Source: Raillietiella orientalis (lineage: Eukaryota). From it: DNA of 55,169 nucleotides. Under the pieces are notes generated by a model. The model was not told where the DNA came from, searched no databases, and was given only the letters and a program-made list of their open reading frames with translations. The position numbers and the translations under genes were made by a program. Location: contig JAYWIR010000115.1 of assembly GCA_036172245.1 (NCBI GenBank), positions 62,001 to 117,169 of the forward strand, written 5' to 3'. Each line of letters opens with the position of its first letter. Position 1 is the first letter of the stretch. Shown here one piece after another: positions 875 to 52,949 of this stretch.

Positions 875-1931
875 TGAGGGCAATCGCGTCTTCTCGTCGT
901 GTTGCGGTGGCGTGCTGGAACGGCAACGGTCTCCAACACGACAAGAAGAGGCGACTAGTAGCTAACGCTCTGCGCGCCTTCGACTTGACGCTCCTGCAGG
1001 AGATTCACAGCATCTCCGAAGAGCAGGCTGCCGAAATCGAACGTCGCGCGGGCGGAAGGCTACATTATAGGTGCGGCGTCGCACGTACGTGCGGCGTCGC
1101 TTTCGTTTTACGAAGAACTTCGGCGGGAGCGGTGCCCGGTGTTTGCTTCGATACGGAAGTCCGTGTGGGACAGCTTGAACTCAAGTGGTCCGACTCGATC
1201 GACCTTGTCGTAACGAACGTGTACGCGCTTAACGGTGCTGGATGATGGGCCGAAAGAATTGAGTTCTTCGGTACCGTTCAAAGCCAGTGGCTCACTCGAT
1301 CTCACCCTACTGTGGCCCATCTCATTGCGGGAGACTTTAACGTCCACCTGCTTTCCGAGAATAGCTTCCACAAAAGGGAAAAGTTTCTAGCGGAAGAGAT
1401 GTGCGCGGCCGTGCACGCGTCCAACTTTTTCGCTAGCGACCCTGTTCTGGCGACATCACCGGACCATGTATTCCTCGATGAATACTTGCTCTCTCGAGTG
1501 GGTCCGAGATGTTCCATGCCGTCCGTGCTTTCGGACCACATCAGGCACGAATTCGAGTTGCTCCCGCCAGGCAAGGGGCCTCCAAACTGTGTTTGGAGGA
1601 AGCCAGCAGACTGACTAAGTCACCCGGAGGCGGCGGAGCATCTTCGCCTGTACCTACGCGGCTTCGCCATAAGTGAGCTCGCTGACTGGGACGATCTGAA
1701 CAGATCGGTCCGCGAGTTTTGCTGCCAGTTTCCCTTGCACCAGCTCTCGCGCCGCTTCGGAGAAGGTGGAGGGAACAGCAGAAATTTTCTGCAGGCCCGC
1801 TCCTACTCCAGGCGCGCAGACGTTGGTCGATTATACGAGTACAAAGCCAAGGCTGAGCGCCAGGTCTGGCAGTCTGGAGCTACATTTCTGATCGACGACC
1901 AGGACCGGGAATGCTCGGCACCAGCCAATGT
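874..1931 (+). pseudogene. ORF2 apurinic-like endonuclease domain of B1 (disrupted)
   Basis: ORFs 871-1245, 1312-1614 and 1735-1968 carry consecutive APE motifs; homologous to the less disrupted 51892-52857. Confidence 0.9.
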
Positions 1932-2822
1932 TTGTCACCCGGATATGCCGGGGCATTTACTATTCTAATTTTGTACAAAAATTAGATAATAAAGTCTTTA
2001 AAAAGAAGTTTACTGTGGGGAAACACAGGGTTCTCCCACCTTGCTCGACGTGTCGGTTGCCGGTGCATAGACCGGTTAGGTTCATTTCCGAGGCACATGG
2101 GAAGAGAAAACTAGAACAAAAACAAACAAAAAGACAGATAACGGTGAGGGAAACAGTTATATGGAGAGAGGAATGGGGGCAGGGAAAAAATCACTGGGCG
2201 CCTGGGTCGGTCCTCCGCATCCTGTTGAGGATGCAGTCAAGTTCGGTTTTTATTGTGAAAGGTAGACGCCACCTTGTCGCCGTCTCTAAAGAGATCGTCG
2301 TTTAGTGGATGGCGTCCCTGCATCTTAAGCCTCTTCTCCTGGCGTGCCACCTTTGCACAATGCCGCTCACGCAGCAGAGGACTGCTAGAGACGCAGCGGG
2401 GCGCAGGCCGTCACTCAGAAAGAGGCGACGGAAAATTTCCTTAGGGTCGCCTACTGGAAGATGGAGGATTAAGGCGATTCGACTCCAGAGTCCATCCTGA
2501 GCGACACACTCGAGGGTGAGATGAGGGAAGGTTTCTCTTTCTCCGCACTCGACACAGCGGGCATCCACATTCCCCAGTGTCCAGTGAGACAGGCGTGCTC
2601 TGCTTAACAGTCCTAAGTGCAGAAATAGCAACGCCGTCTCCTGCAACATCAACGGGAGTGTGTTGCAATCCCAACACGCTGGGGGCCACTTCACCTCCTC
2701 CGGAAGTATTGCGACCAGCTCTCCCCAGCGCGCAAGTCCGTGAGGCGGGACGCTCGGGGTGGCAGCGTCCGTTAGCTCCCGAGTCGTCTACGCCTTTAAA
2801 GGTTTTTTGCGGCCTCGGAAAT
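1932..2822 (-). mobile_element. Family A copy A1, 5'-truncated (C-terminal CCHC + 3' UTR)
   Basis: CVECGERETFPHLTLEC in ORF 2302-2694; 3' stem-loop 1938-1952; flanked by CCAGCCAATGT (1921-1931) and CCAGCCGACGT (2823-2833). Confidence 0.9.
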
Positions 2823-2833
2823 CCAGCCGACGT

Positions 2834-5709
2834 TTGCCACCCGGATATGCCGGGGCATTTATTATTCTGATTTTTTACAAAAATTAGATAATAAAGTCTT
2901 TCAAAAGTTAATTGTGGGAAACACTTGGTTTTCCCACCTTGGTTGACGTGTCTGTTGTCGGTGCATAGACCGGTTAGGTCCATTCCCGAAGCGCATGGGA
3001 AGGGAAAACTAGAACAAAAACAAACAAAAAGAGAGATAACGGGGAGGGAAACAGTTGTATGGAGAAAGGGAGGAAGCAGGGAAGGGATCACTGTGCGCCT
3101 GGGTCGGTCCTCCGCATCCTGTTAAGGATGCAGTCAAGTTCTGCTTTTACTGTGAAAGGTAGACGCCACCTTGTCGCCGTCTCTAAAAAGATCGTCGTCC
3201 AGTGGATGGCGTCCCTGCATCTTGGGACTCTTCTTCTGGCGTGCCACCTTTGCACAATGCCGCGCACGCAGCAGAGGACTGCTAGAGACGCAGCGGAGCG
3301 CAGGCCGTCACGCAGAAAGAGGCGACGGTAAATTTCCTTAGGGTCGCTTTCTGGAAGATGGAGGATTGGGGCGATTCGACTCCAGAGTCCATCCAGAACG
3401 ACACACTCGAGGGTGAGATGCGGGAAGGTTTCTCTTTCTCCGCACTCGACACAGCGGGCATCCACATTCTTCAGTGTCCAGTGAGACAGGCGTGCTCTGC
3501 TTAACAGTCCCAGTGCAGAAATAGCAATGCCGTCTCCTGCCACTTGAACAAAAGTGTGCCGCAATCCCAACACGCTGGGGGCCACTTCACCTCCTCCGGA
3601 GGTACGGCGAGCAGCTCTTTCCAGCGCGCAAGTCCGTGAGGCTGGACGCCCGGGGTGGCAGCGTCCGTGAGCTCTCGAGTCGTCTATGCCTTTAAAGGTT
3701 TTTTTCTGCCTCGGATGAGGCAGGACACTTCCCACGATGCCAGCTCGTTGCTGCTCCTAGTGTTATTCAGGGAGGACAGAACGGGGGCAAGGGGACTGAA
3801 AGAAGCCCACAGAAACTTCCGGGGCGTGTTGATAATCTCCTGCAGCGGCTGTCGAGCGTACGGTCCTCGTCGTAGGCAGTTTTATTCCGCCTCGCTCGTG
3901 CCGTTGATCTTAGCCCACGCGGAAGCTGACTCCTGAAGCCAGGCAGTGCAGTTCGCGGGGATGCAGGAGATCCAGGTATTCTCCCTCATCAGGGCGACCA
4001 TCTGGCGCAAATCGGGGCCACAGTTGGAGAGGCTGCGCTGGTAGGCCACGAGGATCGAGGACAATCCTTCGCAGCCAGTCGCTCTTCTGGCAAGGAGCCG
4101 TGCAGGATCGCACCATGGCGTCATCCATAAGCTAGCCGCAAGGGCTAACTTCCGAAGTGTTGTCTGTAGTTGGATGCGCTCTAACGTAAGGAGGCTCAAG
4201 CCAGAATCCCTGCGTGGAGCGCACAAGTCTTTCTATCGAACTCGCGACCTCGCTGTGCCCCAAAGGCCAGTCCTCAGAAGGGCTTTGGTCCGTCTCTGTA
4301 TGATGGGAGGGGCGGGGCAAACAAAAAGTAAGGGGCGAAGGAGGGGGGCCAGGAACGCGTTCCACACCGCGGCCCGCTTCTGCAAGTAAAACTTGCCGTT
4401 CCGGAACGGGCCGATCGCCAACTCCACCTTTTGGAGACGGTCGGACCAGCCTTCTGCAACGTAGAAGTCCCCTAACGGAACGCCAAGGTACTTGAAGCAC
4501 CTGCCCGTCGGGATTTCCAAGCGGATCCAGTACGGCCGTCCGGCCCACGCCGTATTGTTTAAAAGTAGTGGTGATGCTAAAACGATGGAAGATTTCTTTC
4601 TGTTCACCTCGAGGCCCGTCCCGCGGCGCAGCAACTCAAAGAAATCTTCGAGCGCCGACGCCTGGGTGGACCCGGGGAGCAGGAGCAGAAGGTCGTCGGC
4701 GTAGGCCGACACGGCAGACGTGCCGGGACACGACCTTGGCAGGGTTGCCAGAGTCTCCCTGTATGCCCTCAGCACCAGCTCGAAGTAGATGCTGAAGAGC
4801 GTGGGGCTGAGACTGTCACCCTGCCTTATGCCACGCCGAACCGATACGTCGTACACGTGCCGGCCGCTAAAAGAGATGTTTATTTGAGCGAAGCGCCAGC
4901 AGGAGCGCAGGTGAGCCCGGAAGACGGCCGGGAATCCCAAGCGTTCCAGGAGCTCCAGAAGGAGTTCCTGGTCGACGCAATCGAACGCTTTACGCAGATC
5001 GACTGCGACCGCAAGGGCTCCTGGCGCGGCTCTTCCATGAAGGGCGTCCCCTTCTTGTTCTGAGGAGAATCCGGGATTCTCTTGACCTCCCTGCTCTTCG
5101 CTTTGTTGCAACTGCCACCATGTACTGGCGAGGAACAGGTTGGCCTCCATGCTTCGTCTGGGAACAGCGTATGTCTGCTGCGGACTCACCACGGATTCCG
5201 CTACCCGTCCCAGTCGCTCAGCCCAAATCGTGGCAAGCAACTTCGCATCCGCATTCACTACTGTGATGGGACGCCAGTTGCCTACGTTGCGATTGTCTCC
5301 TCCTTTCGGCAGGAGACGTACTCTAGCTGACCGGAACGATTTGGGGACGTCCCCTTGTTCTCGGATCAGCATGCAAACCCGATGCATCAAAGGGGCCAGC
5401 TCCGCCACGAAGCCTTGTTAAAATTCTGCGGGCAGACCGTCTTCCCCTGGTGCTTTCCTCTTTCTGAGCTTTCCGATGGCGGAGACGATCTCCGTCATCG
5501 AGAAAGGCTCCTCAAGTTGATGTGTCTGCTCCTCCTGTAGCGCGGGGGTGCCTTGCGGCAGCAAGCGCTGCGCCTCGACGCGCTCTGTTGTTCTACGCGC
5601 GTACAAGGAGGAGTAATAGTCCCGCAGGATTCGGTTTATTCTCGCCGGAGCTGAGCATTCCTGGCTTTGGGCGTCCAGCAAGCTGCCCGACCCGGATTTC
5701 CAGGCGCCG
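2834..5709 (-). mobile_element. Family A copy A2, 3' portion (linker, RT, CCHC, 3' UTR)
   Basis: KAPGEDG, NWRPITVVNADAKL, DLRKAFD, GIRQGDSLSP, YADD, KYLGV motifs; 3' stem-loop 2840-2854. Confidence 0.92.
4233..5408 (-). pseudogene. Non-LTR reverse transcriptase domain of A2
   Basis: 391-aa ORF with all core RT motifs including YADD; in-frame stop just upstream, near 5418. Confidence 0.92.
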
Positions 5710-5815
5710 TAAATAGAGATTGTGCTCCATTGCCATCTTTGAAGCCATCCGCGTTTTTGAACGTGGGCACTTTCGATGGCTCCGACACGCTCGTCATGGA
5801 CGCTGCGTTTGCCGT
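5710..5815 (+). mobile_element. Left stub of plus-strand host B2 (APE-RT linker fragment)
   Basis: Reads GTFDGSDTLVMDAA and continues after A3 as SAVQRVVKRNY (6571-6606), homologous to PADVQRIVRRYY. Confidence 0.55.
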
Positions 5816-6570
5816 TTGCCATTTGCCACCCGGATATGCCGGGGCATATATTATTCTAATTTTCTAGAAAAATTAGATAATAAAGTCTTTCAAAAGTTAA
5901 TTGTGGGAAACACTTGGTTTTCCCACCTTGGTTGACGTGTCTGTTGCCGGTGCATAGACCGGTTAGGTCCATTCCCGAGGCGCATGGGAAGGGAAAACTA
6001 GAACAAAAACAAACAAAAAGAGAGATAACAAGGAGGGAAACAGTTGTATGGAGAGAGGGAGGAAGCAGGGAAGGGATCACTGTGCGCCTGGGTCGGTCCT
6101 CCGCATCCTGTTCAGGATGCAGTCAAGTTCTGTTTTAACTCTGAAAGGTAGACGCCAGCTTGTCGCCGTCTCTAAAGAGATCGTCGTCCAGTGGATGGCG
6201 TCCCTGCATCTTGGGCCTCTTCTTCTGGCGTGCCACCTTTGCACAATGCCGCGCACGCAGCAGAGGACTGCTAGAGACGCAGCGGGGCGCAGGCCGTCAC
6301 GGTAAATTTCCTTAGGGTCGCCTACTGGAAGGTGGAGGATTGGGGCGATTCGACTCCAGAGTCCATCCAGGGCGACACACTCGAGGGTGAGATGCAAGAA
6401 GGTTTCTCTCTCTCCGCACTCCACACAGCAGGCATCCACATTTCCCAGTGTCCAGTGAGACAGGCGTGCTCTGCTTAACAGTCCCCAGTGCAGAAATAGC
6501 AACGCCGTCTCCTGCCACTTCAACGGAAGTGTGCCGCAATCCCAACACGCTGGGGGCCACTTCACCTCCT
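5816..6570 (-). mobile_element. Family A copy A3, 5'-truncated
   Basis: Near-identical to the A1/A2 3' ends; stem-loop 5829-5843; flanked by GCGTTTGCCGT (5805-5815) and GCGTCCGCCGT (6571-6581). Confidence 0.9.
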
Positions 6571-8790
6571 GCGTCCGCCGTACAGCGCGTAGTCAAGCGC
6601 AACTACGAGAGCTTTTGGAACGTCTGGGTCTTCCGGCATCCCTGTTGGCGTCCTTGCTTTCCTGCAGGCGCCACGGGATTACATCCATTGTTTTCAGTGG
6701 CTGTCACGTGTACGACGTGCCGGTTAGGCGAGGAATTAGGCAGGGCGATAGCTTGAAGCCGCTGCTCTTTAGCATCTATTTTGAAATGGTTCTAGAGGCT
6801 TACAGGCTGACGCTGGCCAACCTGCCGAGCTCCTCTTCAGGTACGCCGGCCGTGGCAGCCTATACCAACGACCTGCTTCTTCTGTTGCCCATGTCCACCC
6901 CGGCGGCGTCGCTTGAAGATTTCTTTGAGTTGATCCGTCGCGGTGCGGGCGTGAGCGTCAACACAAGCAAGAGCCTGGTTGTTCCGGTTGGAGCGACGTG
7001 GGAGGGGCAGTCCGACTGGATCCGCCTGGGGATCCCCACGGGCAGGTATCTAAGGTACCTTGGCGTGCCGTTAAGCGACTTCTGCATCTCAGAAGCGTGG
7101 TCAGACTGCCTTCGGAAGGCAGAGCGTGCACTTGGCCCGTTCTCAGGAGGCGAGTTCGTCTTGCCGGAACGAGCCAGCATCTGGAACACCTTCGTTGCTT
7201 CCCTCCTCCGTCCTCAGTTTTTTGTTTGTCCACCCCCCCAGGAAGTCAAAGTCTGGGCGCAGCACCTTCTACGCAAAGCGTTGTGGGGCGCTGCAAGATC
7301 CCGTGTTAGACTTAAATTCTTGGTGGCGCCGCGTCAGGATGCAGGCTTGGGCATCCTCGACTGAAACAGTATGGACCTGCAGGTGCAGTTTCGCATTCTG
7401 CGTCTCTGTGCTTAGCTGTAGTGTACGCCGTGGTGCTTACCCGTACGCTTTCTACTGAGGCGTTGTACGGGAAGCGAGGGACTGCTTTCGTTGCTGCCCC
7501 ATTTTCGGCACATCAGAATAGAGTTTGCCTTTCCGCTGAGGCAGCTTTCCTCACTGTTGGAAGCCCAATGCTGTATCTCCTGCCGCTGTATGAACATTAA
7601 TGCATGACGGCAGGAATCTTTCTCATCGTGGGCAGCTTCCGAAGGAACGCGCATGGAAGATCTTCGACGCCTGCAACTTCTCTTCAGTCATCCAATGGAC
7701 GATATCATGCAGGACAAGAAGTCGAATCGTCTGCGCACAATACTACTCGCCTCAGCGCTGTTTGCCCAGAGGGAAAGCAACGACGGTTGCCTACCGGAGG
7801 AATGGGAGTTCTCCTGCAAAATCGCGGGAGACAGTAAGCTCCTCGGCAGCTGGACGACAAAGGAGCTGGTGCAAGCCGCCACTCCTCGGAATCGGGCGAT
7901 GGGCCTGCTTCGGTGGAGGGAACATTTAAGTGTGCCCCCCGGAGAGATAGTCGTTCCCCCCGTTTGTTTGTACAGCTCCGTGTTCCCCCTAAAGTGGAAA
8001 CAAGATGTGCTGCTCTTTTTACATTGCGCATTACACTGTAATAGGCATCGAAGCATCGTTTCCGGGGGAGCTGCTTTGCCAAACTGTTCAAGGTGCCAAG
8101 AGATCGAGTCTTTTCCGCACCTTTAGCTGGACTGCGGTGACCTCCGGGAACTGTGGCGAAGGCTCACTTCGGCCACCATGTCACAAGGAGGCACTGCCAT
8201 TGATGTGCTGCGGCGCTTCTTCAGCAGAAATGGACTTTCGGTTGGCGCGATTGTCGCAACCATGTGTTGCGTTCGCGCCATCGTGAAGGCCCGCTAAGCC
8301 CTGGAGTTGTCATTGCAGCGAAGGGAGGCTCACCTGCTTGCAGCTCAATTCATGGAGAAGGCTTCAAGGTGGTCTCATCTTCGTGACAAGGTGAATGAGG
8401 ACATCAGCGGCATACATCGCTGGTTTACACACCTTTGAGAACGGCGAAATCCGGTGACCTCTGCGACCTCTCGCCCACCCATACTCCGTCCCCATTCGCT
8501 CGGTAAAATTTCCGGTTCCCATGCTTTTATGCCCGTGTCTTCCAGAGCGATCCCAAAGACCCTTATCCCGTCCTCCTTATCCATTGTTTTTATTTTATTT
8601 TGGTTTCTTTGTGTTCCCCGCCCTTCCCACACCGTTCGCAAAACTGTTACTCTGGCCTGCGTGCCAGCAATATTCTCTTCATTCTTGTTCAGTCGTCGGT
8701 TGGGAGTTTGGTTCCCAACTGGTTTATTTTATATAATTGTTTTTTGTTTATGTTATATGGAATAAACGCCTTGGCGTGACCGGGTGAGAA
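6571..8790 (+). mobile_element. Family B copy B2 (internally deleted; RT C-half, CCHC, 3' UTR)
   Basis: GIRQGDSL, YTNDLLL, RYLGV, GLGI, CSRCQEIESFPHL; collinear with about 10300-12474; AATAAA at 8761 followed by the stem-loop. Confidence 0.9.
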
Positions 8791-9606
8791 ATCCTCCGGG
8801 CTTGATCTGCGGAGATCACGTGGATCTCCTGCAGCAGCACCAGGTCGAAGGATGCCAAGGTGGCGGCCACGTCACGCGTCTTGCCGTCGTTGCTTAGCCC
8901 GTTGACGTTCCAGCAGGCGATCAGCAGACGACGATTGGAGGCGATTCCCGGCTTTATTGCTGGTAAGGTGTCGCTGCAGCACCTGCCGCGGGGCAAATGT
9001 TGGGGATGTCCATGGGGACGGAGGCCTCTTCAGGCACCAGATGCACCTGTTCGGCTTCCACCCCCTCCATCCCCTTCGTGTGGGAGCGTGGGATTCTCTC
9101 TGGCAACGGATCCCGGAAGTTTACCACGCTCAGCGCACCATCGCTGAAGGAAGCCATCTCTTCCCCTTCGTCGGGGAGACGATCATCTTGGGCTTTGGGG
9201 ACTTTCGTCCAGTTCTTTTGCGAGGTGCGCTGCAGATATAAGCTGAGCTTCCGGCCTCTACCTCAAGGCCGGAAGTAAGGGACTTCTGAGGGGAGGCCGG
9301 ACGCCTGACGGCCTTCTTTCCAGCCTTCGGGGCAACCGGCTGCAAAGAGGCAGCCAGTTCCTCCGCGACGCGCTCGAAGGCGACGTCCTCAAGCGTGGGC
9401 TCGATGACGGACGCCGCCGCCTCGCTCCACTCCTTGTTGACTTCGTCAACGGAGGGTTGAGCGGAGGCAGCAGGGAGTTCTTTAGCGCCGCATTCGTCGA
9501 TGGCGGAAATCCGCTCTACGTCGACGCAGCAGCTTTTGTTTTTTTCGCAGCGCGGAGCGGTTTCGCTCCTATCCGCCACGTTCTTTTCCTTTTTAGGGAA
9601 GTTTTT
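8791..9606 (-). mobile_element. 5' portion of A2 (ORF1 C-terminus + APE N-terminus)
   Basis: IACWNVNG...LLQEIHVISADQARRI cut at 8791. The right end abuts CCAGCCGACGT (9607-9617), identical to 2823-2833, which links it to A2. Confidence 0.8.
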
Positions 9607-12474
9607 CCAGCCGACGTGCAGCGGATAGTCAGGCGCTATTACTCTTCTCTGTATGCAGAGGCACCAACGGCACGCAGTCTCTCCGAGCTGCTTCTGCCGA
9701 TTCATGCACCTGTTGTAGACGAGGAGGAACGCGCGCGTCTCAATGAGCCTTTCACGGCAGAGGAAATTTCTTCGGCCATCTCGCGGCTTAAGAGACGAAA
9801 AGCGCCAGGCAAGGATGGACTCCCCACAGAATTCTTCCAGAGCTTAACGGCGGAGCTCATCCCCCTGGTTCTTCAACTCTCATCGCTGATGCGAGACGCG
9901 GGCGATATCCCCGCCTCGTTTCGCTCACCGAAGGTGCGTCTCCTGCCGATAGGCGGAGATTCGCGTCTACTGAACAATTGGCGTGCGATCCCCTTAGTGA
10001 ATTCGGACGTCATGTTGTTCTCGAAACTTTGGGTGGCGCGGATGGGGAGGATCGCGGAGTCTTTGGTAAGTCCGGAGCCGACCTACGCTGTTCCTGGGCG
10101 CTCCATGGACGCGAACCTCTTACTCCTCCGCACATGGCTGCAATTGCAGCATCGCGTGGCGAAGGATCGTCGTGCGGAAGCAACGCCTTCGATCTCTGAC
10201 CGACGGAGGCGCGGGTCACAAAGGGAAACCCCGGGAGCCTTGGCGGTTGCAGTCGATTTGCACAAACCTTTCGATTGCGTGAACCAAAAGCTTCTTCTTG
10301 AGCTCTTGGAACGTTTGGGCCTACCGGCATCCCTGTTGGCGTACTTGAGCTCTTTGCTGGCGCCACGGGATAACATCCATTGTTTTCAGTTGCTGTCACG
10401 TGTACGGCGTGCCAGTTTGGCGAGGAATTAGGCAGCGCGATAGCTTAAGCCCGCTGCTCTTTGGCATCTACTTTGAAATGGTGCTGGAGGCTTAGAGGCT
10501 GACGCTAGCCAACCTGCCGAACTCCTGTCCAGGTACGCCGGCAGCGGCAGCCTATGCCGACGACCTGCTTCTCCTGTTGCCCATGTCCACCCCGGCGGCG
10601 TCGCTTAAGATTTCTTTGAGTTGATCCGTCGCGGTGCGGGCGTGAGCGTCAACAGGAGCAAGAGCATGGTTGTTCCGTTTGGAACGACGTGGGAGTGGCA
10701 GTCCGACTGGATCTGCCTGGGGATCCCCACGGGCAGGTACCTCAGGTACCTTGCCGTGCCGTTGGGCGACTTTTGCATCTCAGAAGCGTGGTCGGACTGC
10801 CTTCGGAAGGCAGAGGGTGCACTTGGCCCGTTCTCAGGAGGAGAGATCGTCTTGCCGGAACGGGCAGCATCTGGAACACCTTCTTTACTCCCCTCCTCCG
10901 CCCCCTGTTTTTTGTTTGTCCACCCCCCCAGGAAGTCAAAGTCTGGATGCAGCGCCTCCTACGCAAAACGTTGTGGGGCTCTGCAAGATCCCGCGCAAGA
11001 CTTAAAGACTTGGTGGCGCCGCGTCAGGATGCAGGTTTGGGCATCCTAGACTTAAAAAGCATGGAGCTGAAGGTGCAGTTTCGAATGCTGCGGCTCTGTG
11101 CCAAGCTGTGGTCTACGCCGTGCTGCTTATCCGCACGACTTATACTAAGGCGATGCACGGGAAGCGAGGGACTGCTTGCGTTGCTGCCCCACATTCGGCA
11201 CATCAGAATAGGGTTTGGCTTCCCGCTGAGGCAGCTGTCCTCACTGCTGGAATCCCAATGCTGGATCTCCTGCCGCCCCATCAACATTAATGCATGGCGG
11301 CAGGAATCTTTTTCATCGTAAACAGCTTTAAGGGAACGCGTTCGGAAGATCTTCGGCGCCTGCGACTTTTCCTCAGTCATCCAATGGACGAAGTCATGCA
11401 GCACAAGAAGATGTCGGATCGTCTGGCCGCCACACCGCTCGCCGCAGCGCTGTCTGCCCTCAGGGCAAGCAACGACAGTTGCCTACCGGCGAAATGGGAG
11501 TTCTCCTGCTCAATAGCGGGAGTCATTAAGCTCCTCGGCTACTGGACGACAAAGGAACTGGTGGAAACTGCTACTCCTCGCAATCAGGTGAAGGGCCTGC
11601 TTCGGTGGAGTGAACATTTAAGTGTACCTCCCGAAGAGATAGTGGTCCCCTCTGTTTGTTTGGACAGCTCTGTGTTCCCCCTAAAGTGGAAACAAGATGT
11701 GCTGCTCTTTTTACATTGCGCATTACACTGTAATAGGCAGCGAAGCATCGTTTCCGGGGGAGCTACTCCGCCAAATTGTTTGAGGTGCGGTGAGATCGAG
11801 ACTTTTCCGCACCTCATGATGGACTGCGGTGACCTCCGTGAACTGTGGCGAAGGCTGATTACAGCCATCCTGCCGCAGGAAGGCACTGCCATTGATGCTC
11901 TGCGGCGCTTCTTCAAGAGGAATGGATTTTCGTTAGGCGCGATTGTCGCAACCATGTGTTGCATTCGCGCCATCGTTAAGGCCCGCTACGCACTGGAGTT
12001 GTCAGCGCAGCGAAGGGAGGCTCACCGGTTTGCAGCAGAATCCATGAGAAACGCTGCTAAGTGGTCTCATCTTCGTAACGAGGTCAAAGAGGACATCGTC
12101 GGCATCCACCGCCGGATTACAGACTTTTAGGAACGGCTTTATCCGGTGACCACTACGTCCTGAAGCCTACCCATACCCGTTCCTTGCTCGCTCTGCTAAA
12201 ATACCGGTGCGATTACTATAATCCCGGAGAGAACCAGAGCTATCCCAAAGACCCTTGTCCCCGCGTCAACCGTGGATTTCTTCTTTTGTTTTTGTTTGAT
12301 TGTTTTCTCAGTTCCCTCAAACCGTTCTGTGTAATTCTGGCCTGCGTGCCAGCAGTATTCTCTTGACACTTGTGCCGTCGTCGGCTGGGGGCATGGTACC
12401 CAACTGGTTTATTTTATATATTTATTTCTATTGTATTTATATGAAATAAACGCCCCGGCGTGACCGGGTGAGAA
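9607..12474 (+). mobile_element. Family B copy B1, 3' portion (linker, RT, CCHC, 3' UTR)
   Basis: KAPGKDG, DLHKPFD, YADD (gcc tat gcc gac gac near 10550), CLRCGEIETFPHLMMDC; AATAAA 12445-12450 and stem-loop 12454-12468. Confidence 0.9.
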
Positions 12475-31403: not shown

Positions 31404-31409
31404 AATAAA
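31404..31409 (+). terminator. Polyadenylation signal of PPCDC
   Basis: AATAAA 23 nt after the stop codon. Confidence 0.6.
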
Positions 31410-42481: not shown

Positions 42482-42482
42482 A

Positions 42483-43466
42483 ATTTATGAACCGGATATT
42501 CCTGGGCATTTATTCTAATTTAGTATAAAATTAGATAATCAAGTCATTCAATATTGGTTTATGTTGGGGAACACTTGGTTCTCCCACGCTCGCGTTCTTG
42601 TCGTGATCCGGTTCTGAAACCGGTGAGGTCCTCTCCCTAGGACAGTACAAGGGAAAACTGAAACAAAAAGAAACAAAACGAGAAATAACGGGTAGGGAAA
42701 CAGTAACATGGGAGGGTGAAGGGCAGGGAGGGGATCACTGAGCCCCTGGGACGGTCCTCTGCATCCTACTCAGGATGCAGACGAGTTCACCTCTTATTAT
42801 GGGTGGTAGACGCCACCTTGTCGCCATCTCCAAGGAGAGCGTAGTCCAGTGAATGGCGTCCCTGCATCTGTGGCCCCTTCTAGCGCTCCACCTTTGCAAG
42901 ATGCCTCGCACGCAGCAGAGAACTGCTAAAGACGCAGCTGGGTGCAGTCCATCACGCAGAAAGAAGCGTCTGTAGATGTCCTTAGAGTCGCCTACTGGAA
43001 GACGGAGGGCTGGGGCAAGTCGACTCCAAAGTCCTACCAGGGCGAAACACTCGAAAGTAAGGTGCGGGAGGGTTTCCCTTTCACCGCACTCGACGCATCG
43101 GGCATTCACGTACCCCAGTGTCCAGTGTGACAGGTGTGCTCTGCTTAGGAGTCCCCGATGCAGAAAGAGCAACGCCGTCTCCTGTCACTTCAACGGGAGG
43201 GTGCCGCAATAGCAACACGCTGGGGGCCACTCACTTCCTCCGGAGGTATTGCGAGCAGCTCTCCCCAGCGCACAATTCCGTGAGGGGGGTCGCTTTGGGT
43301 GCCAGCGTCCACAAGCTCACGAGTTGTCCACTCCTTTATCGGTCGTGCCCTGCCGTCAATAGTGCAGAACACTGTCCATTCCCCCTGCTCGCTGCTGTCC
43401 CTAGAGTTTACAACAAAGGGCAACACAGGGGCAAGGGGAGTAATGAGAGACCACAGAAACTGGTCG
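42483..43466 (-). mobile_element. Diverged family A copy A5, 5'-truncated
   Basis: CVECGERETLPHLTFEC (ORF 42735-43172); A-type 3' UTR; degenerate stem-loop 42491-42505. Confidence 0.85.
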
Positions 43467-45887
43467 TTTATTACCCGGTTGCGCCGGGACGTTTATTGAA
43501 AAAAAACATCTGCGAACTGTGTTCCCAGGCAAGGGAAACAAAAGATGGGGAGTAGATTCCCCGGCACGCAAGCCGGGCACACTGAGAGTTCGTAACGGGA
43601 AGGAGGGAACAATAAATAAATAAATTGGGTGGGAGGGTGGGGATAGGGGTCTATAGGCCAGCCGTTCCTATTCTCAGAACCGGCGGTGAATGCCGCCGAT
43701 CTCCGTCCTCACTTCTGCTCATAAGTGTGGCCACCCGGCAGCCATTTCCAGGTTTCAGGCTGCTGTGTCGGGGACCGATGTTGGGACTGCTCGCATCTGT
43801 AATACGCGGTGGGCCCTGACAATGGTGCGGACGCAGCAGATGATTGCGACCACCGCTCCAAGAGAAAGACCGCCACGCGTGTAGAAGCGGCGCATCCAAT
43901 CGATTGCGGTGTCTCCGGGGTGCAGGAGCGCTGAAGACAGCCGCCGCCACAGCTCCTGGAGGGCACCGCATTCAAACAGCAAATGCGGAAGCGATTCCAC
44001 CGCTCCGCATTTGGCACAGTTCGGGGACGCAACTTACCCGGAAACCAGGTGCGCGTGCTGGTTGAAGAACAAACCCCAATGCACCAGCAGAAAAGCGTCC
44101 TGTTTCCACCGAAGGGGGAAGACAGTCGCGTCCAAACACACAGAAGGGACCACAAATTAATTGGTGGGCACCCCGAGGAGCTTACTCCACCGGGGAAGTC
44201 CCTTGGCACGAAGGCAAGGCGTGGCAGCGTCTGCCAGCTCGAAAGTCCTCCAGCCGCCCAGCAGTCGGGTTTCGCCCACACTTTGCAGGCGACCTCCCAC
44301 CTCGCCGGTAGGTCACTGTCGTCTCGAATCATCAGTGCAGACAGTGCTTCGGCGAGGGGCGTAGCGGCTAGGCGTATCCACTGGTCCTGGTCTTCAAGCA
44401 CCTCCCCCACTGGACAGTATGGGGAAAGGTTCACGCAACGGAGTTCCAAACGGGAAACATTCTGTTGCGCCGCCCAGGACGATAAGGCTTCCTGCCTCCA
44501 GGCGTTGAAGTTCGTCGGCCGGCAGGAGATCCACTCATGCTTTCCCAGAAGCGTGGCGAGCTGCTTCAAAGGGAAGCCGAATCCTCTCTGGGCGCGCTCC
44601 GTGCGCAGATGCAACGAACGTAGTCCGTCGCCACCCGTGCTGCGCCGCAGCAGCAGCCGCGCTAAAGCACACCAGGGAGTAGTCCAGAGCTGCGCACAAA
44701 GTGCCAGCATGCGGAACTGCACTAGCAGTCCGATCCACTCCAGCGTCAGGATGCCCAATCCTGCATCCCGCCGAGGAGCCGCCGAGTCCTTCAGGCGCAT
44801 CCTTGACCTCGCCGGTCCCCAGAGGGCGTTACGCAACAGGCGTTGCGCCCGGCGCTTAGCCGAGTAGGGAGGGGGACAAACAAAAAAGAGAGGACGGAGG
44901 AGGGAGGCAACGAAAATGTTCCACAGAAAGGCCCGTTCCGACAGGAGAAACCTGCCGCCTTGGAGCGGGCCCAGAGCAGTCTCGGCCTTGTGAAGGCAGT
45001 CCGACCACGCTTCTGCTGGACAGAAGGCGCCCAAGGAAACGCCGAGGTACTTCAAGCACCTGCCCGTGGGGATCCCCAGGCGGATCCAGTCCGACTGCCC
45101 CAACCGGTACAACGGTTGATTTCCTCCTGTTGACGATCAGGCCCGCCCCCCGACGAATGAGCTCGAAGAAGTCCTCGAGCCTGGACGCCAGGGTGGACAT
45201 GGGCAGCAGCAGGAGAAGGTCGTCAGCATAGGCGGCCACGGCCGGAGTTCCCGGAAAGGAGCTCGGCAGGTTAGCCAGCGTTAGCCTGTACGCCCTCAGC
45301 ACTAACTCAAAGAGGATGCTGAGGAGCAAGGGGCATAAGCCGTCTCCCTGCCTGATACCCCGCCGTATGGGAACACCGTACACGTGACGCCCGCTGAAAG
45401 AGATACAGCATAACGCGTAACGCCAGCAGGAGCGCAAGTAGGCGATGAGGTGCGTCGGGAGGCCTAGGCGTTTTAGAAGCTCCAGGAGGAGGTCCTGGTT
45501 CACGCTTTCGAACGCTTTGCAGAGATCGACGGCGACCGCTAAGGCTCCCGGCGTTCCATCGTGCCTTGAACACGGATGCTTTCCTTTGGCAGCAGCGATT
45601 TCGGCTGCCTGGCTCTGCTGCGCCACGCGCTGCTGCAACTCGATCCATGTTCGCACGAAGAAGAGATTCGCTTCCATGGACCGCCCCGGAACAGCATACG
45701 TCTGCTCTGGACTTACCAGAGACTCCGCGATTCTCTCCAGCCGAACGACCCACAGTTTGGAGAACAACTTGACGTCCGAATTCACCAAGGTGATCGGACG
45801 CCAGTTGCTTAATTGGCGCATGTCTCCGCCTTTCGGCAAGAGACGCACCCCTGCTGAGCGGAAAGAAGAGGGAACATCTCCCGTCTC
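43467..45887 (-). mobile_element. Family D copy D1, 5'-truncated (RT + CCHC + 3' UTR)
   Basis: ORF 44856-45848 with NWRPITLVNSD, GIRQGD, YADD; CAKCGAVESLPHLLFEC; stem-loop 43474-43488. Confidence 0.88.
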
Positions 45888-47000
45888 CCCTTCAGCGCCT
45901 GTCGCGTACGGACCTGCTTTTGCGTCGCTCCGCGGTAGGCTGACTCTTGTGTGTTTTTGTTCTGCTGTGCTTCTGTTCTGCAGTTCTTCTGTTCTGCAAT
46001 GGGAGCAAAGAATAACATCAGCCGCAAGAAGAGAACGGTAGCTGCTCCTGAGATGGCGGTTTTGGCTGCTAGCAAGGAGCCACTGTCCTCGCCGACGGCG
46101 AGGACGTTCGCCCAGGTCGCTGCCCTCGCGGCTACAATGGGACCTTCGTTCAACAGCCCTGAGCTGCAGGCGTAGTTAGCAAATGGCTACACGCCTGCAC
46201 TCAAGTATAAGGTAAGTTTGCTTATGCCTGAGCGGATTGGGTGCGACTTTGGCCAGGAACTCCAACGGATTGCAGTTCAAAAAAGACAGATGGAGTCCAT
46301 GATGCCCATGAGTGGGTGCGGCTACTGGGAGGTGTCCTGTAAGGACGCTCTGCTTACGCAGCGTTTGCTGCATACGCCGCTGCTCATTCCTGGGCAGGAA
46401 ATACTCCCCACCACTGCGGATCAGTCGTTCGTTGTCCGGCTGAGTGGAGTGAGCAAGGGCCTTTCAGACCGCCAGGTCATGGAGGCCCTTGAAAAATTCG
46501 CCTCCGTTCACGCGCTTTGGAGGTTGTCAAACCCTGCTGAGGGTTTCGAAGACCATCACAGCGAGGTCGCCTAAGTGCTAGTGACGATGGCGGATCGCCG
46601 GCCAATGCCCACGCGATTGCAGGTGGATGAAATGACCATCCGCCTGTGGTTTGCGGGGCAAACGCTTGTGTGCGCAGAATGCGGGCAGGAGGGTCACCGC
46701 CTTACCAAGTGTCCGTCGGCCGCTTACCGTTACTGCCACGAGACCCGGCACACAAAAGAAACGTGCCCGGAGCTCCTTTTGAAAAACGAAAAGCGAAAGA
46801 ACGAAGCGCGTATCGCATCGCCAAATAAACTCCGCAAATCCAGGGAAAACAACCTCAAAACTTCGGAGAGCGTTGGGAAAATCGCGAGCGCGCATGCGCA
46901 GAATACTCTTCCTCCCCTCCACAAAAAAGGGGAGAAAAACATAAAGAAACGCGTAACGGCGAAGCCTCAGGCTACCGAGCCGACGGAAGCTCGCGAACAA
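45888..47000 (+). mobile_element. Element E1: 5' UTR + ORF1 with zinc knuckles (disrupted)
   Basis: GYWEVSCK, SVHALWR, CAECGQEGHRLTKC; in-frame stops at 46175 and 46574. Confidence 0.8.
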
Positions 47001-47520
47001 TGCGACCCCTTCCCGAGACCTCGGTGGGGACGGACGTGTTTTTCCTTCGCTCCCGAGAGAGTCGAATGGAAGGCGCTTTTTTTCTTGGTGCGTTTTGTGT
47101 GGAACATCGTTGGTGTCCGATTGCATCCTTGACTCAGGACACAACGATGGAGGTAGGAGTGGGGAGGCTTGCCCAGCCCCACAGCCTACTTCATAAGGGG
47201 TATCATCCCAGGAATCGCTCTCTTTGCCCAAGGTGAGGAGCTGGAGCGCCATGGTGTCCGCACCTAGAGCGGAAGCCATGGCCGAGATTGAAGCCTACAA
47301 GGCAGCGGGATATAAGCCCTCGCTGATATACCAGGTAGGCAACCTTTTAATGGGCGAACTGCACGCGCATTTACGAAGGCGCTGCAGAACGCCAATATTT
47401 TGGAGAAGGATCTTGACGGCCTCTCCGTGCTTAGCTGGTGTCAGCGCGTCGAGGCCGTCTGTAAAGACATTAGCTTGACGCAAAGTCTGATCACCACCGT
47501 GCTGAACATGGACGGGCGCA
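47001..47520 (+). mobile_element. Element E2: 5' UTR + ORF1 N-terminus
   Basis: GGACGTG at 47032; RSWSAMV...EIEAYKAAGYKPSLIYQV homologous to B3 ELQAHAAHGYKPALCYPV. Confidence 0.65.
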
Positions 47521-49835
47521 AGAAACCAGCCTCCACCCCAGTCCTTGGAGGATATAGGAGTACAATAGCAGGTACGGAAGCGTTTCCACTTCCCGCACCG
47601 TTTACAGTTCGAGGAGACACCTCCCCCAGAAACACGGTTCGTCCGCTGGTTCGAGTAAAAACTCCAATGCACCACTTTATGACGTCCTGCTTCTACGAAA
47701 GGGGGAACACAGAAGTGTTCAAACAGGAGGAAGGGACCACAAGTTCTTCGGGGGGAACACTCAAGTGTTCACTCCACCGAAGGAGTCCCTTCGAGATGTG
47801 GCGAGGCGTGGCGGCGTCTGCCAGCTGACAAGTTCTCCAGCCGCCTATGGGTCGTGTTGTTGCTGCGATGGTTCAAGCGAATCCCCCATCTTGTCGGTTC
47901 GCAGCTGTCATCTTTTGCCCTGAAAGCTGACAGCGCTTCGACGAGGGGCGTGACGGCCAGGCGAGTCCACTAATCCTGGCTGTTGCACACCTCGTCCAAC
48001 TTGCAGTACAGGGAGAGGTGAGCGCAACGAAGTTCCAGGAGGGAAACATCCTGGTGCTTTGCCCAGCCATGTAACGGTTCCTGCCGCCAGGCTTGAAAGT
48101 TCGTTGGGTTGCAGGAGATCCATTCCTGGGCTGCCAGTAGCCGCTAGAGCGGTTTCCAAGGGAAACCGAAACTTGTCGTGGGGATCTCCGTGTGCGGACG
48201 CAACAATAGAAGTCCATCACTGCCTGTGCAGCGCCGCAAAAGAAGGCGCGCGGGAGCGCACCACGGAGTGGACTAAAGGTTGGTGCACAGGGCCAACATC
48301 CGAAGCTGCATCTGCTACCCGATTCTCTCCATCGTCAGGATGCCTAATCCAGCATCCCGACGCAGAGCCGTCAAGTGTTTTAAGCAGATCCTGGACCTCG
48401 CAGGTCCCCACAGAGCGTTCCTCAACAGGCTGTGCGCCTGTAGCTTGGCCGAGATTGGGGGCGGGCAAACAAAAAGCAGGGACGCAAGTGGGAGGCAGCG
48501 AAAGTGTTCCATATAGTGGCCCGCTCCGTCAGGACGAACCTGCCATGGTGGAACGGGCTCAGGGCATTCGAAGCCTTCCGAAGGCAGTCCCACCACACTT
48601 CCAGTGGGCTGATGTTCCCCAGCGGAACGCCCAGATATTGCATGGAGGAAGCGGTCGGGATCCCCAGGCGGATCCAGTCGGACTGCCCCTCCCATGCCGC
48701 ACCAATAGGTACGACCACGCTCTTGCTTCGGTTTACACTCATGTCCGCTCCCCGGCGAATCAGCTGGAAGAAATTTTCGAGACTGGACGCCGGGGCGGTC
48801 ATGGTTAAAGAAGAAGCAGATCGTCAGCATCGGTCGCCACGGACGGCGTCCCTGAGCAAAAGCTCGGCAGGTTGGCCAGCGTCAGCCTCTATGCCCAAAG
48901 CACCAACTCAAAGAAGATGCTGAAGAGTAACGGGCTTATGCTGTCGCCCTGCCACATGCCCCGCCGCATTGGCACGCCGTACACGTGGCATTCGCTGAAA
49001 GAGATGGAAATGAGCGCCTGGCGCCAGCAAGCCCGCAAATACGCCACGAGGTGCACCGGGAGACCGAGGCGTTCCACGAGCTCCAGCAGGAGATCCTAAT
49101 TTACGCAGTCGGCAGCCTTGCTTGCTCCAGGGTGGACGTGTTTTCTCGGATCTGCAGAGATCACGTGGATCTCCTGCAGCAGCGCAAGGTCATAGCACTC
49201 CAGAAGGGAGGCCATGTCTCGTCTCCAGCCGGCGTCTGTCATGCCGTTCACGTTCCAAACGGCGATGCGCAGACGACGGCGGGAGGAGATTCCCGGCATT
49301 ACTGCTGGGAAGACTAAGGTGTGGGGGAGCCCGCCTCTTGCATGGCGGGCGAGATGTCCATGGGTGTTTCGGCCTTCTCAGGCACCTGCGGCACCTGTTC
49401 GGCCTCCTCCCCCTCCATCCCCTCCGTGTCCGTGTGTGGGAATCTCTCGGGCGACGGGTAACGAGAGTTTCCCACGCTCAAGGCACCCTCGCTTGCGGAA
49501 GCCATCTCTTCTCCTTCCACGGGGGATACGAGCTTCCTTGGATTTGTGGACTTACGTGCAGCCTTCTTGCGGGGTGCCGTGGAAACGGAGGCTGCGCTTC
49601 TGGTCTCCACCTCGGGATCGGAAGTGGGTGACTTCTGAGGGGAAGTGGGACGCCTTACGGCCTTCTTGCCAGCCTTCGAGGTTTCTAGCTGCAACCAGGC
49701 AGCAAGCTCCTCCGCGGCTCGCACGAAGGCTACGTCATTGATGGTGGTGTCGATGACAGACGCCGCCGCCGGCTCGCTCCCCTCGCTGTTGACAGAGTCA
49801 ACAGAGGGGTTGTCGTCGGTAGCGACGTGTTCTTT
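47521..49835 (-). mobile_element. Family C copy C2 (ORF1 tail, APE N-terminus, internal deletion, RT C-half, CCHC; both ends missing)
   Basis: IAVWNVNG..QEIHVISAD joined near 49145 to KAADCVN/ELVERLG; 47521-48800 collinear with C1. Confidence 0.85.
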
Positions 49836-49837
49836 TT

Positions 49838-52800
49838 AACAGCGGTCGGAAATACGCTCGACGACAACGGTGCACGGACGTGTTCTGTGTTGCTCCACGA
49901 GCGTGATTCCTTTCCGTCTTCTTGTGTGTGGTGTGCCCGAGTGCGTCCACTGGCATGTCCACGGAGCCCCTGCAGCAAAAGATGGATGTGGAGGCTGCTA
50001 CTGGCAGTGGAGACTCTACTCCAGATGTCGGGTCCGCCTCTGATTCTTGTGTCTCGCCACCGGCGAGAAGCTTCGCCGCCGTCGTCAAGGTGGCGGCAGC
50101 CAACGGAGCACCGCCCGACGAAGCGGAGCTGCAGGCACATGCAGCCCATGGCTACAAGCCTGCGCTCTGCTATCCGGTGAGTTCTGAGATCTCCGACGGG
50201 GTCGGAGAAAATTTGCGGGACGAGCTTTCGCGCCTCGGGGTCCGACAGGACGACCTCCTGGCCGTCATGCCGGTTAACGCGCTCGGACACTGGGAGGTGC
50301 ACTGCAAAGAGGCATCCCTAGTCCAGCGCCTTCTTTGCACCCCGCTAAATATCCGCGGGAAGGAGGTCGTCTGTTGGCCATGGACCAGTCGTTCGTGGTT
50401 CGATTATCCGCCGTCCAGGTGGACACGCTTGATCGCGTGCTCGTCGCTGCACTAAGTGCATTCGCCACGGTGCACGCGCTGTGGAGAGCAGATAATCCGA
50501 TCAAAAGGATTGCATCTCTCCACAGCAGACTTGCCATGGCGCGTGTCACCATGGCGGATAGGAGGCAAATGCATCCGCACTTGCAGGTGGGCGATGCGAT
50601 CGTCCACCTTAAATTTGCCGGTCAGCGACCGGCTTGCGGTATTTGCTGTGCCCAGGGCCACCGTCCGTGGACGTGCCCTTCACGCAACTGCCGCTATTGT
50701 AAACAGCTCGGCCACTCCATCAAAGAGTGTGCAGAGCTGAAGAGGAAGCGGCAGGCGAAAAGCCGCCAACAATCTACCTCGTCCGCGCCGACAAGATCCC
50801 CCGTTGTGCCACGGGAGAAATCGGGAGCGAAGGGCGGGGCATCTTCGAGTGGCGGTCCCGCAAAAAAGGGCGCGGTTGCTTCAGGAAAGCCATCCCAGAC
50901 AACTGCGCAGACGGGAAATATGCCACGTCGCCCTGGGGACAAATCGCCTTCTTCGAAGCAGCCTAAGAGTGCGGGCACGCACTCAATCAAGGCTGCTGAA
51001 CCGTCTGCGTCCGCTTGCGCGTCCAGCGGAGCATACGGGAAACCGTGCGCGGGTACCCTCGGAGCTACCTCTGAACGGCAGTCTCCTCCTACGGCGGTGG
51101 AGATCACGTCTTCCACGCCGAAGGCACGAGCAGCGAAGGCTGCAATAGCGCCTCGCGGGACGACGGCAATCACCGCCGTTTCGCACGCATCGGCTAAGGA
51201 GCAGGTGCAGTGCGTAACGGGGACGGAGCCGTCTCCCGCCGCGAGCGCGAAACGTGAGCCGGCATCTCCGGCCAAACAATTGAGGGAGGCGTCGGCCTCC
51301 CAGGAGGGCGTCCCCGACGCGGGCTGGACTCGAGTCTCCAGGACGCCCAAAAGGGGAAGAAGAAGGTTGTCCCTTCAATATTCCCCATCCTTAAGGTAGG
51401 TGGGAGGCAAAAGAGAAGCACGCCGAACAAGGTGCGTACCCAGGTACTCACTACGGCTGCGTGCTCTGTCTTTGTCGCTTCGCGCGAGAGAGCGGCTGCG
51501 GAAGCCAAAGCTCCGGAAGCTGCGTTGGCGACTGCGACGACCCCCGCGCGGGCAGGGCAAGCCTCCTCCTGCCGAAACAAAAAGAGACTGGCAAAACGCC
51601 AGTCTCGCGCCAGGCACTCGGACTCCACCTCGGAGTCCGAGTGCAAACAAATGGAACGCGCATCCCGGGGAAGCCGGTAGCGCGCCGGGCAACAGTGCGA
51701 AAGCACGAGCCTGTTGCCGGAGGCGGTTCCGGCTCCTGCATGGAGACCGAGGCGATGATCCTCGGCTGCCAGGACTCAGCTGGGCGCGATGTGGCGGCGA
51801 ACGGGAGCCATTCCGCTTCCCTATCCGCTCTCCTACCAGCTGACTTCTCGCCGGACGGGACGAGGAGCACGCCGTCATGTCCGCAGCAGTGATGCGTGGA
51901 CTCGCGTCCGCTCGTCGCGTCAGCGTGGCCTGTTGGAATGTCAACGGACTACGTGATGCTGACAAAAGGCGGACGGTAGCCAACGCTTTGCGCGCGTTCG
52001 ATCTGGTGCTGCTGCAGGAGATACATACCATCTCCGTACGGCAGGCATCGGATCTGGAAGAGCGCGCGGACGGAACGCTACACTGGCGGCAAGGCTCCGC
52101 GCACACGTGCGGAGTCGCGTTCCTCGTCCGAGGCAGGGTGGCGGAGGCGGTGCGGAACGTTTGTTTCGACGAGGAAGGTCGTGTGGGCCAACTTGTCCTC
52201 AAGTGGTCCGAATCGATCGACCTGGTCGTTACGAACATCTACGCACCGAGCGGCGGCCGGTATTACGCCCAGCGACTTGCATTGCTGGGTGGCCTGCGCA
52301 GCCGCTGGCTCGCTGACTCCGGCCCTTACGTGGCGCACCTCCTTGCAGGAGACTTCAACGTCCACCTGCTAACAGAGGAGAGATGCCGCTTGAGGGAGAA
52401 GCAACTGGTGAGCGAGGTATGCGCGTCCGTGCGCGTGCAAAACTTCCTTGCTGGTGAGCCCGGGATGGAGAGATCGCCGAACCATGCGTTCCTCGATGAA
52501 CACCTGCTCTCACGACTAGGTCGGAGAGGGCGCCTGCTGTCCGCGATTTCGGATCATCCTAGACTGGAGTTCGAGCTCCTCCCGCCTGGCAAAGGGCCTC
52601 CGATCAATGTCTGGAGGTTGCCTGCCGACTGGCCTAGCAATTCCGAGGCGACGGGGCATCTCCGCCAACACCTCCGGGGCTTCGCCATCTGTGAACTCGA
52701 GGACTGGGACGATCTGAAAAGATCGGTCCGCGAGTTCTGCTGCCGGTTCACCTTGCACCTGCTTCCCCGCGGCTTCGGGAAGGGTGTCGCGAACAGCAGA

Positions 52801-52949
52801 TCCTATTTGCAGGCGCGTACCTTTTCACGATTTCCGGACGTCCGGCGTCTGGTATAGTATAAGGCCAGAGCCGAGCGCCAGGTTTGGCAGTCTGGAGCGG
52901 CTTGTCTGCTCGATGACGCTGACCAGGAATGTTCGGCTGCAGCCGAAGT
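49838..52949 (+). mobile_element. B-type element B3: 5' UTR, ORF1, APE; interrupted at 52949
   Basis: ORF1 from about 49955 with CGICCAQGHRPWTC and CRYCKQLGHSIKEC; TGATG overlap 51890-51894; APE ORF; ends QECSAAAEV. Confidence 0.92.
51892..52857 (+). pseudogene. ORF2 APE endonuclease domain of B3
   Basis: WNVNG, LQEIH, NIYAP, GDFN, SDH; premature TAG at 52855. Confidence 0.9.

Follow-up and report, generated by a model that had tools for sequence, protein, structure and literature searches.

Repeated insertion of one retrotransposon family at a single nucleotide within the coding region of a related family

Introduction

When one long interspersed nuclear element (LINE) is found inside another, does it lie wherever a break happened to be available, or at a place that it is built to find? 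The question is raised by a stretch of 55,169 nucleotides from Raillietiella orientalis (NCBI GenBank assembly GCA_036172245.1, contig JAYWIR010000115.1, positions 62,001 to 117,169 of the forward strand), here called the window and numbered from its first letter, in which fragments of several LINE families lie nested. We found that one of these families, family A, was repeatedly inserted at a single nucleotide of the coding region of a related LINE family, family B, antisense to it and with an 11-base footprint. The reading that we favour, at a probability of roughly 85%, is that A is an autonomous, L1-like, APE-type retrotransposon without long terminal repeats (LTRs) that has a sequence-specific target, site X, in B.

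Family A joins family B at one bond

The window is eukaryotic repeat DNA, with nests of LINE fragments at 1-12960 and about 40000-55169 (56-62% G+C) and, between them, DNA of 36-50% G+C without recognisable genes. Families were delimited by self-comparison of the window and by mapping against four reference pieces, which defined family A (minus strand), family B (plus strand) and a B-like family C (41056-42484 and 47522-49111), together with a further B-like copy at 43811-45897 and two distant relatives of A at 42484-43461 (77% identical) and 32053-33116 (67% identical). In the reverse transcriptase (RT), the nucleotide sequences of A and B are about 68% identical.

Site X lies in the linker between the endonuclease and the RT of B, after the GT of the Val codon in an xVQR motif and about 13 residues N-terminal of the conserved YSSLYA of the linker. 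Four 3' ends of A adjoin it: CCAGCCAATGT (1921-1931) followed by TTGTCACCCGG, CCAGCCGACGT (2823-2833) followed by TTGCCACCCGG, GCGTTTGCCGT (5805-5815) followed by TTGCCATTTGCCACCCGG, and GCAGCCGAAGT (52939-52949) followed again by TTGCCACCCGG. At two 5' junctions B resumes, after 6570 with GCGTCCGCCGT-ACAGCGCGTAGTC and after 9606 with CCAGCCGACGT-GCAGCGGATAGTC. The six junction strings quoted in the initial annotation were all recovered where it had placed them, and its claim that every cut falls within the Val codon of xVQR was borne out by reading in frame, which puts the break behind the second base of that codon: the B frame ends N-V (1931), D-V (2833), (A)-V (5815) and E-V (52949) at the four 3' junctions, and beyond the 5' junctions it reads (V)QRIVRRYY (9607) and (V)QRVVKRNY (6571).

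The association was the same when approached from either family. The 21-mer that ends A occurs in the window four times exactly and once with 2 mismatches (0 expected), and all four exact copies stand at X; with both 5' junctions (6570/6571 and 9606/9607), they share one bond and one orientation, A being antisense to B at every X junction. Conversely, each of the four B fragments extending to X is interrupted at that point, and no uninterrupted X was found within the window. A B-like copy at 43811-45897 was considered as a possible uninterrupted X and rejected, being 5'-truncated ahead of the linker. A degenerate 14-mer of X gave 11 matches at up to 2 mismatches (6.6 expected), with matches at up to 1 mismatch only at two junction sites. 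Among the few X sites the conserved bases are CC at -7/-6, GT at -2/-1, CAGCG at +2 to +6 and TAGTCA at +9 to +14. The homologous linker of A reads GCGAGAATAAACCGA where B reads GCCGACGTGCAGCGG, and that of the copy A2 reads ...QECSAPARINRILRDYYSSLYA; the X motif is absent from it, so A is not a target for itself.

The elements around these junctions are as follows.

1 to 1931, plus strand: B-a, 5' part of a family-B LINE with the C-terminus of open reading frame (ORF) 1, APE domain and linker; ends at site X
1921 to 1931, plus strand: target copy CCAGCCAATGT, left of A1
1932 to 2820, minus strand: A1, 5'-truncated family-A copy comprising the 3' 889 bases; 90.7% identical to A2; exact 3'-end 21-mer at 1936
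2823 to 2833, plus strand: target duplication CCAGCCGACGT, serving A1 as its right copy and the A2/A4 insertion as its left copy; equal to 9607-9617
2834 to 5804, minus strand: A2, family-A copy retaining the APE C-terminus, linker, RT, C-terminal zinc-binding region and 3' untranslated region, up to its 3' end
5805 to 5815, plus strand: GCGTTTGCCGT, a decayed B-b target copy (9 of 11 bases) or tail repeats of A3
5816 to 6570, minus strand: A3, 5'-truncated family-A copy of 755 bases; 93.3% identical to A2; exact 3'-end 21-mer at 5827
6571 to 8791, plus strand: B-b, from the X duplication (GCGTCCGCCGT, 6571-6581) to the 3' end; 84.9-86.7% identical to B-c; 3'-end 19-mer at 8773-8791
8792 to 9606, minus strand: A4, 5' region and APE N-terminus (...CWNVNGL...FDLVLLQEIHVISADQA), interrupted at a second site, Y (±3 bases), where it meets the 3' end of B-b; 5' end adjacent to X
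9607 to 12475, plus strand: B-c, starting with the X duplication (CCAGCCGACGT, 9607-9617), including the RT and reaching the 3' end
12476 to 12818, minus strand: A5, another APE N-terminus fragment of A type, interrupted at Y, where it meets the 3' end of B-c; 5'-truncated at 12818
12819 to 12960, minus strand: B/C-like RT fragment (AAYADDLLLLPMTTPT...), ending in CCGACGT at the A5 5' junction
49982 to 52949, plus strand: B-d, a second B host with ORF1 (weak zinc knuckle match), APE and linker; ends at X; 5' limit approximate
52939 to 52949, plus strand: target copy GCAGCCGAAGT, left of A-d
52950 to 55169, minus strand: A-d, family-A copy running off the end of the window; 93.6% identical to A2; exact 3'-end 21-mer at 52954

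The reading frame of B-a terminates ...ECSAPANV, and B-a is about 73.5% identical to B-d, in which the Pfam domain Exo_endo_phos was found (expect value, E, 1.8e-12). RVT_1 was found in A2 (E 5e-25, 4233-5417, minus strand). Matches to zf-RVT were weak and under the Pfam cut-off (E 0.0016 and 0.0093), and the zinc-knuckle match was likewise weak and below it; Pfam searches of nine further ORFs of the window gave one weak zinc knuckle and nothing else, and scans of the window for Rfam families, tRNAs and tandem repeats gave nothing relevant.

The insertions carry an 11-base duplication, and an empty site was found in another run

Target duplications of about 11 bp, as proposed in the initial annotation, were seen as one perfect pair and two pairs matching at 9 of 11 bases. 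The perfect 11-mer, CCAGCCGACGT, occupies 2823-2833 and 9607-9617, and becomes 12 bases (2822-2833 and 9606-9617) if the preceding T is counted. A1 is flanked by CCAGCCAATGT and CCAGCCGACGT, in which both differences are CpG transitions, and A3 by GCGTTTGCCGT and GCGTCCGCCGT; the end of A3 consists of three units, TTGCCGT/TTGCCAT/TTGCCAC, of the form TTGCCRY on the plus strand.

A search for uninterrupted B copies had been proposed beforehand as a check, and one was found in a public DNA run (X1), where a single 450-base contig aligns to 1702-1919 with 22 other letters and then, with no gap and no extra letters at the join, to 9606-9836 with 19 other letters. By its alignment, this contig is an uninterrupted B paralogue carrying the 12 bases once, and it is the strongest evidence that the duplication is real. 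A duplication of constant length and an empty site were both found.

A model for insertion at site X

Under the favoured reading, the endonuclease of A would nick the sense strand of B after ...(G/T)CCGNNGT and before RCAGCG (...CCGNNGT^RCAGCG), and the freed 3' hydroxyl would prime reverse transcription, which would start at the 3' terminus of the A RNA (...CCCGG-CAUAU-CCGGG-UGGCAA, no poly(A)); because priming would start from the sense strand of B, A would always come to lie antisense to it. A second nick, in the other strand and 11 bases upstream, would give the 11-base duplication, and A copies would frequently be 5'-truncated. The duplication would in turn rebuild X at the 3' side of A, where further A copies could land, giving head-to-tail runs of 5'-truncated copies such as A1-A2-A3. 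We infer that the endonuclease, rather than pairing of RNA with the target, gives the specificity, and the order of the two nicks is of the same standing.

Pairing is the best of the alternatives, unlikely though well short of negligible. Here, transcripts of A that run on into the downstream B sequence (ACGUCGGCUGG...) would anneal to nicked or broken B DNA, so that X would recur even with a relaxed nuclease. In R1 and R2, downstream read-through sequence helps precise insertion. The complement of the primer strand follows every A copy at X, so that read-through RNA would pair with ...CCAGCCGACGT-3', and the three tail units of A3 resemble slippage or re-priming. Yet the 11-mers of the hosts differ at 2 to 4 positions while the break stays at the identical bond, and a fixed stagger of 11 bases suggests two defined nicks. 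Pairing and endonuclease specificity could also act together.

The insertions are independent events

It is very improbable that the junctions descend from a single ancient insertion, in which a B master with A at X was amplified as a composite, by B retrotransposition or by segmental duplication, and the junction was inherited. In its favour, the window is a repeat cluster in which duplications are plausible, and BLAST gave a single stretch of 80% identity, crossing the junction, between 829-2819 and 51847-53832. A junction copied along with its host should nevertheless show equal divergence on both sides, and within this same stretch the host part was 73.5-75.8% identical against 92.2% for the A part. 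More generally, the A copies beside the junctions were 91.3-95.3% identical to each other, whereas between the hosts B-a and B-d identity was 73.5% across 1100 bases and 75.8% in the final 300; as the A copies are more alike than their hosts, a single ancient junction copied with its host does not fit, and the comparison shows that the A insertions are younger than the divergence of their hosts. Single insertion also fails to account for the four different 5' truncation points of A (2820, 5804, 6570 and 9606), for tandem A copies with an 11-mer between them, for junction 11-mers that match the sequence of their own host (CCAGCCGACGT, GCGTCCGCCGT and GCAGCCGAAGT), and for the uninterrupted B paralogue of run X1.

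By these comparisons, the A insertions at X are independent events, as had been argued beforehand from differing hosts and differing truncation points. The truncation points were confirmed, and of the three differing hosts originally counted, B-a and B-d do differ and a total of three is probable; B-a (1-1931) and B-c (9607-12477) most likely once formed a single B copy, since the X1 contig joins 1919 to 9606.

It is scarcely credible that the junctions are artefacts, whether chimeras from misassembly of a collapsed repeat or the outcome of related LINEs recombining ectopically, since, although the region is highly repetitive, the RTs of A and B share the identity given above and the nest needs at least one recombination or deletion step, the junctions unite the extreme 3' end of A (or its variable 5' truncation points) with a position of B that lacks A-B homology, the inserts are flanked by direct repeats at one bond across hosts of different sequence, and contigs from an independent run cover 30 of 30 bins of 1-12900.

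Several observations weigh against sequence-specific targeting by A, or limit how far it can be taken. The sample is one window, with four A 3' ends in three hosts at most. The copy of the terminal 21-mer with 2 mismatches (at 32060) belongs to the 67%-identical relative, whose copy at 32053 lies in unique AT-rich DNA, and the 77%-identical A-like copy at 42484 follows the YADD box of another LINE; as these two distant relatives are not at X, the specificity would be a property of family A proper. A2 keeps only the C-terminus of its APE domain and the linker, and no intact A endonuclease is present in the window. The flanks of A2 are mixed, with an 11-mer of the B-a/B-c type on the left and one of the B-b type on the right, so that an extra step is needed, and the left duplication of A3 (5805-5815) is ambiguous in that it may partly consist of A tail repeats from slippage. 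The X1 contig at X is known by coordinates and mismatch counts rather than by its letters, and run X1, which held 0.11 of the sampled words of 1-10000 and of whose 265 placed contigs 6 were at least 99% alike, may derive from a different strain or species.

A proposed alternating nest of the two families at 1-12960

On the plus strand, the segments follow one another as B-a (to X), A1, the 11-mer, A2, GCGTTTGCCGT, A3, B-b (X to 3' end), A4, B-c (X to 3' end), A5, the B/C-like RT fragment and unique DNA. We propose that this is an alternating nest, A-type > B > A > B > A, of which the segments would form the right-hand side, with the following history. A B/C-like element would have received A5, which received B-a/B-c; this B copy would have received a full-length A (A2...A4) at X, and the full-length A would have received B-b. 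B-b would then have received A copies at its own X, and A1 would have landed in the rebuilt X. The flanks of A2 could be explained by homologous deletion between two A copies of the same orientation, a step in which the 5' half of B-b and the central part of the full-length A would have been lost as well. B-b itself has an internal deletion of about 660 bases, by which a point 35 bases past site X (6606) is joined to the equivalent of 10300, in the RT region LLELLERLG.

The 5' junction at 9606 stood in the initial annotation as an A junction. Its string and position hold; the segment that it bounds, 8792-9606, contains only a 5' region and the endonuclease N-terminus, and is assigned to A by duplication and orientation, without sequence overlap with A.

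Family B may in turn target A-type elements at a second site

Both exact 3' ends of B (8773-8800 and 12457-12485; ...GGCGTGACCGGGTGAGAAA, with the tail ...CCGGGTGAGAAA) abut, in antisense orientation, the endonuclease N-terminus of an A-type element, and do so at the same point, Y. On the sense strand of the host the sequence up to the break reads ...LLQEIHVISADQARRI in one case and ...LMQEIHVISAEQAQEI in the other, within the coding sequence ...LLQEIHVISA[D/E]QA..I, and shared A/T bases limit the precision of Y to ±3 bases. This suggests that B in turn targets A-type elements at Y. That the A and B lineages target each other, A at X in B and B at Y in A-type elements, and so build an alternating nest in the manner of Russian dolls, is a tentative proposal and one that we hold as rather less probable than not. 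An identity test for the independence of the two Y junctions gave no contrast, the last 330 bases of B-b and B-c being 79.7% alike and the A-type flanks 79.3%. No B copy with both flanks was present in the window, and the 5' flank of B-d is not endonuclease sequence. Joints in run X1 labelled as opposite strands (1171 to 8818 and 1185 to 8809) were considered as intact endonuclease genes across Y and set aside, as they lie about 160 bases off the homologous register.

A third A-type 5' fragment, A6 (49151 to about 49944; endonuclease N-terminus ...LLQEIHVISAD), is uninterrupted by B. A C-type RT (PRKHVHPGA...DLLLELVERLG) continues from it in frame and on the same strand, with the fusion point 12-15 bases from Y (49100-49160); the fusion is either an internal deletion or a nested 5'-truncated insertion. 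The 5' regions of A5 and A6, 89.7% alike, may belong to family C, a C-like member of which is seen at 47682-49944; A4 shares 79% identity with them, and its assignment to A is through the matching duplication only. The possibility that A6 ends at the GGACGTG motif at the 5' end of B-d was rejected, as pairwise alignment showed that the similarity between A4 and A6 runs on to about 49923; the boundary between A6 and B-d lies within 49924-49981.

Other junctions and the common 3' end

The 5' junction of A5 (12818/12819) abuts CCGACGT (12819-12829), in the RT of a B/C-like fragment just past its YADD. This 7-mer occurs 6 times in the window (4.96 expected), and 3 of the 6 are at A-type junctions. 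The uninterrupted sequence at the A5 junction probably holds the palindrome CGACGTCG, judging in this single case from the homologous place in B-b.

A 3' terminal motif, AATAAA..CCCGG-N5-CCGGG-T-(G/A)-A-rich tail, is common to all the LINE families here; it lacks poly(A) and was seen at the ends at 2834, 12475, 40697, 43464, 32053 and 42484. Its loops are specific to the families (CATAT in A, CGTGA in B and CGCAC in C), and the termini of A and B read ...GGGTGGCAA and ...GGGTGAGAAA, respectively, again without poly(A). The hairpin CCCGG-N5-CCGGG folds in 5 of 6 family ends, with weak z-scores of -0.5 to -2.2, and we speculate that it may be a recognition element for the RT.

Families A and B are distant from named elements

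In a search among proteins of near length, a database protein of 619 residues (P0003) was the only close match among 14, at 66% identity to the RT of A. P0003 matched human L1 ORF2p at E 1.3e-39 and R2 proteins at 1e-15 to 1e-17, and the APE domain of B matched the L1 endonuclease at E 9e-7, all against solved structures. A search among longer proteins gave 48 matches, all at most 31% identical and comprising L1-like proteins of plants, animals and oomycetes. The matches of P0003 and of the B APE place both families in the L1 superfamily, the zf-RVT matches being weak, and we conclude that A and B represent a poorly sampled L1-like lineage. The source of P0003 is a metagenome contig of 2870 bases, in which the ORF starts 13 residues ahead of the position equivalent to X. 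A metagenome scan with a 4-sequence RT alignment returned 3 loci of 24-33% identity, which were unusable for flanks and among which the P0003 contig did not appear, and the exact 21-mer of the A 3' end had 0 matches in contigs of prokaryote genomes.

Comparison with known target-specific LINEs

The Tx1 group is alike in that, in the passages cited, APE-type LINEs of the L1 superfamily have as target a defined place in another transposable element (PMC1950540, PMC4494074). There, Tx1L is described as inserting into the DNA transposon Tx1D, with an endonuclease that nicks almost only the expected target (PMC1950540); Tx1-Mar targets Mariner-N4_AMi, Tx1-9_AMi a Harbinger, and Tx1-8_Crp and Tx1-4_AMi LTR retrotransposons (PMC1950540, PMC4494074), and the crocodilian Tx1 families are said to favour Mariner, Harbinger or "specific groups of LTR retrotransposons" (PMC4494074). 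In contrast, the target of A is coding sequence, the ORF2 linker, in a sister LINE whose RT is about 68% identical, and A lies antisense with an 11-base duplication. The Tx1 clade is presented there as an animal group, and A is likened to it by target behaviour, the best named long relatives of A being at most 31% identical.

In general, APE LINEs with a specific target are found mainly in the Tx1 and R1 clades (PMC4640811). R1 and other APE LINEs specific to ribosomal DNA or repeats resemble A, as there described, in using one bond of a multicopy target with a fixed orientation and a fixed short duplication; their specificity lies in the APE domain, and the choice of a multicopy target is usually explained by its being a safe haven (PMC1919474, PMC4640811). 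Their target is a host multicopy gene or microsatellite, whereas A hits a competing retrotransposon and destroys its ORF2.

Zepp and ZeppL of green algae are described in the cited text as forming G+C-rich clusters of nested L1-type LINEs and as self-targeting, with no fixed nucleotide named there (PMC3446292, PMC8226300). The window is Zepp-like in its LINE nests of high G+C content beside DNA of lower G+C content (56-62% against 36-50%). Zepp elements have a poly(A) tail. By these descriptions, this window differs in holding at least two distinct families, in its single-bond site and in an A without poly(A). Reciprocal targeting, if true, would be a sequence-specific hyperparasitism that by itself builds G+C-rich clusters of LINEs alone, as in Zepp, and would supply a molecular mechanism for their formation.

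Other LINEs with transposons as their targets are already known, in the Tx1 group and the Zepp clusters; what is new is that the target is the coding sequence of another LINE. Full-text literature searches, with the original Zepp paper and supplements outside their scope, found no description of a LINE targeting one bond in the ORF2 of a sister LINE, or of reciprocal targeting. Family A adds a LINE lineage with single-bond target specificity that is far from named elements (at most 31% identity to any named long protein found), and is a clear case of a retrotransposon using another as a safe haven and inactivating it. With its rebuilt target and alternating nest, the window suggests a concrete and testable mechanism by which LINE-only clusters, including those proposed as centromeres in some algae, may grow, and an APE domain recognising a long G+C-rich site would be a useful natural example for the specificity of LINE endonucleases.

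Other features of the window

At 40690-46000, three 5'-truncated LINEs of different families lie head to tail on the minus strand: a B-like copy (45897-43462), a relative of A (43461-42484) and a C copy (42484-40690, starting inside its own YADD box), followed by a B 5' region. Each of these LINEs begins directly at the 3' end of the preceding one.

The region at 22000-32000 has a G+C content of 36-40%, in contrast with the flanking LINE nests; its sole ORF of at least 150 residues is at 25234-25728, and it gave no Pfam, Rfam or tRNA match. A dispersed repeat pair, 72% identical and unrelated to the LINE families, lies at 16834-17573 and 38790-39580.

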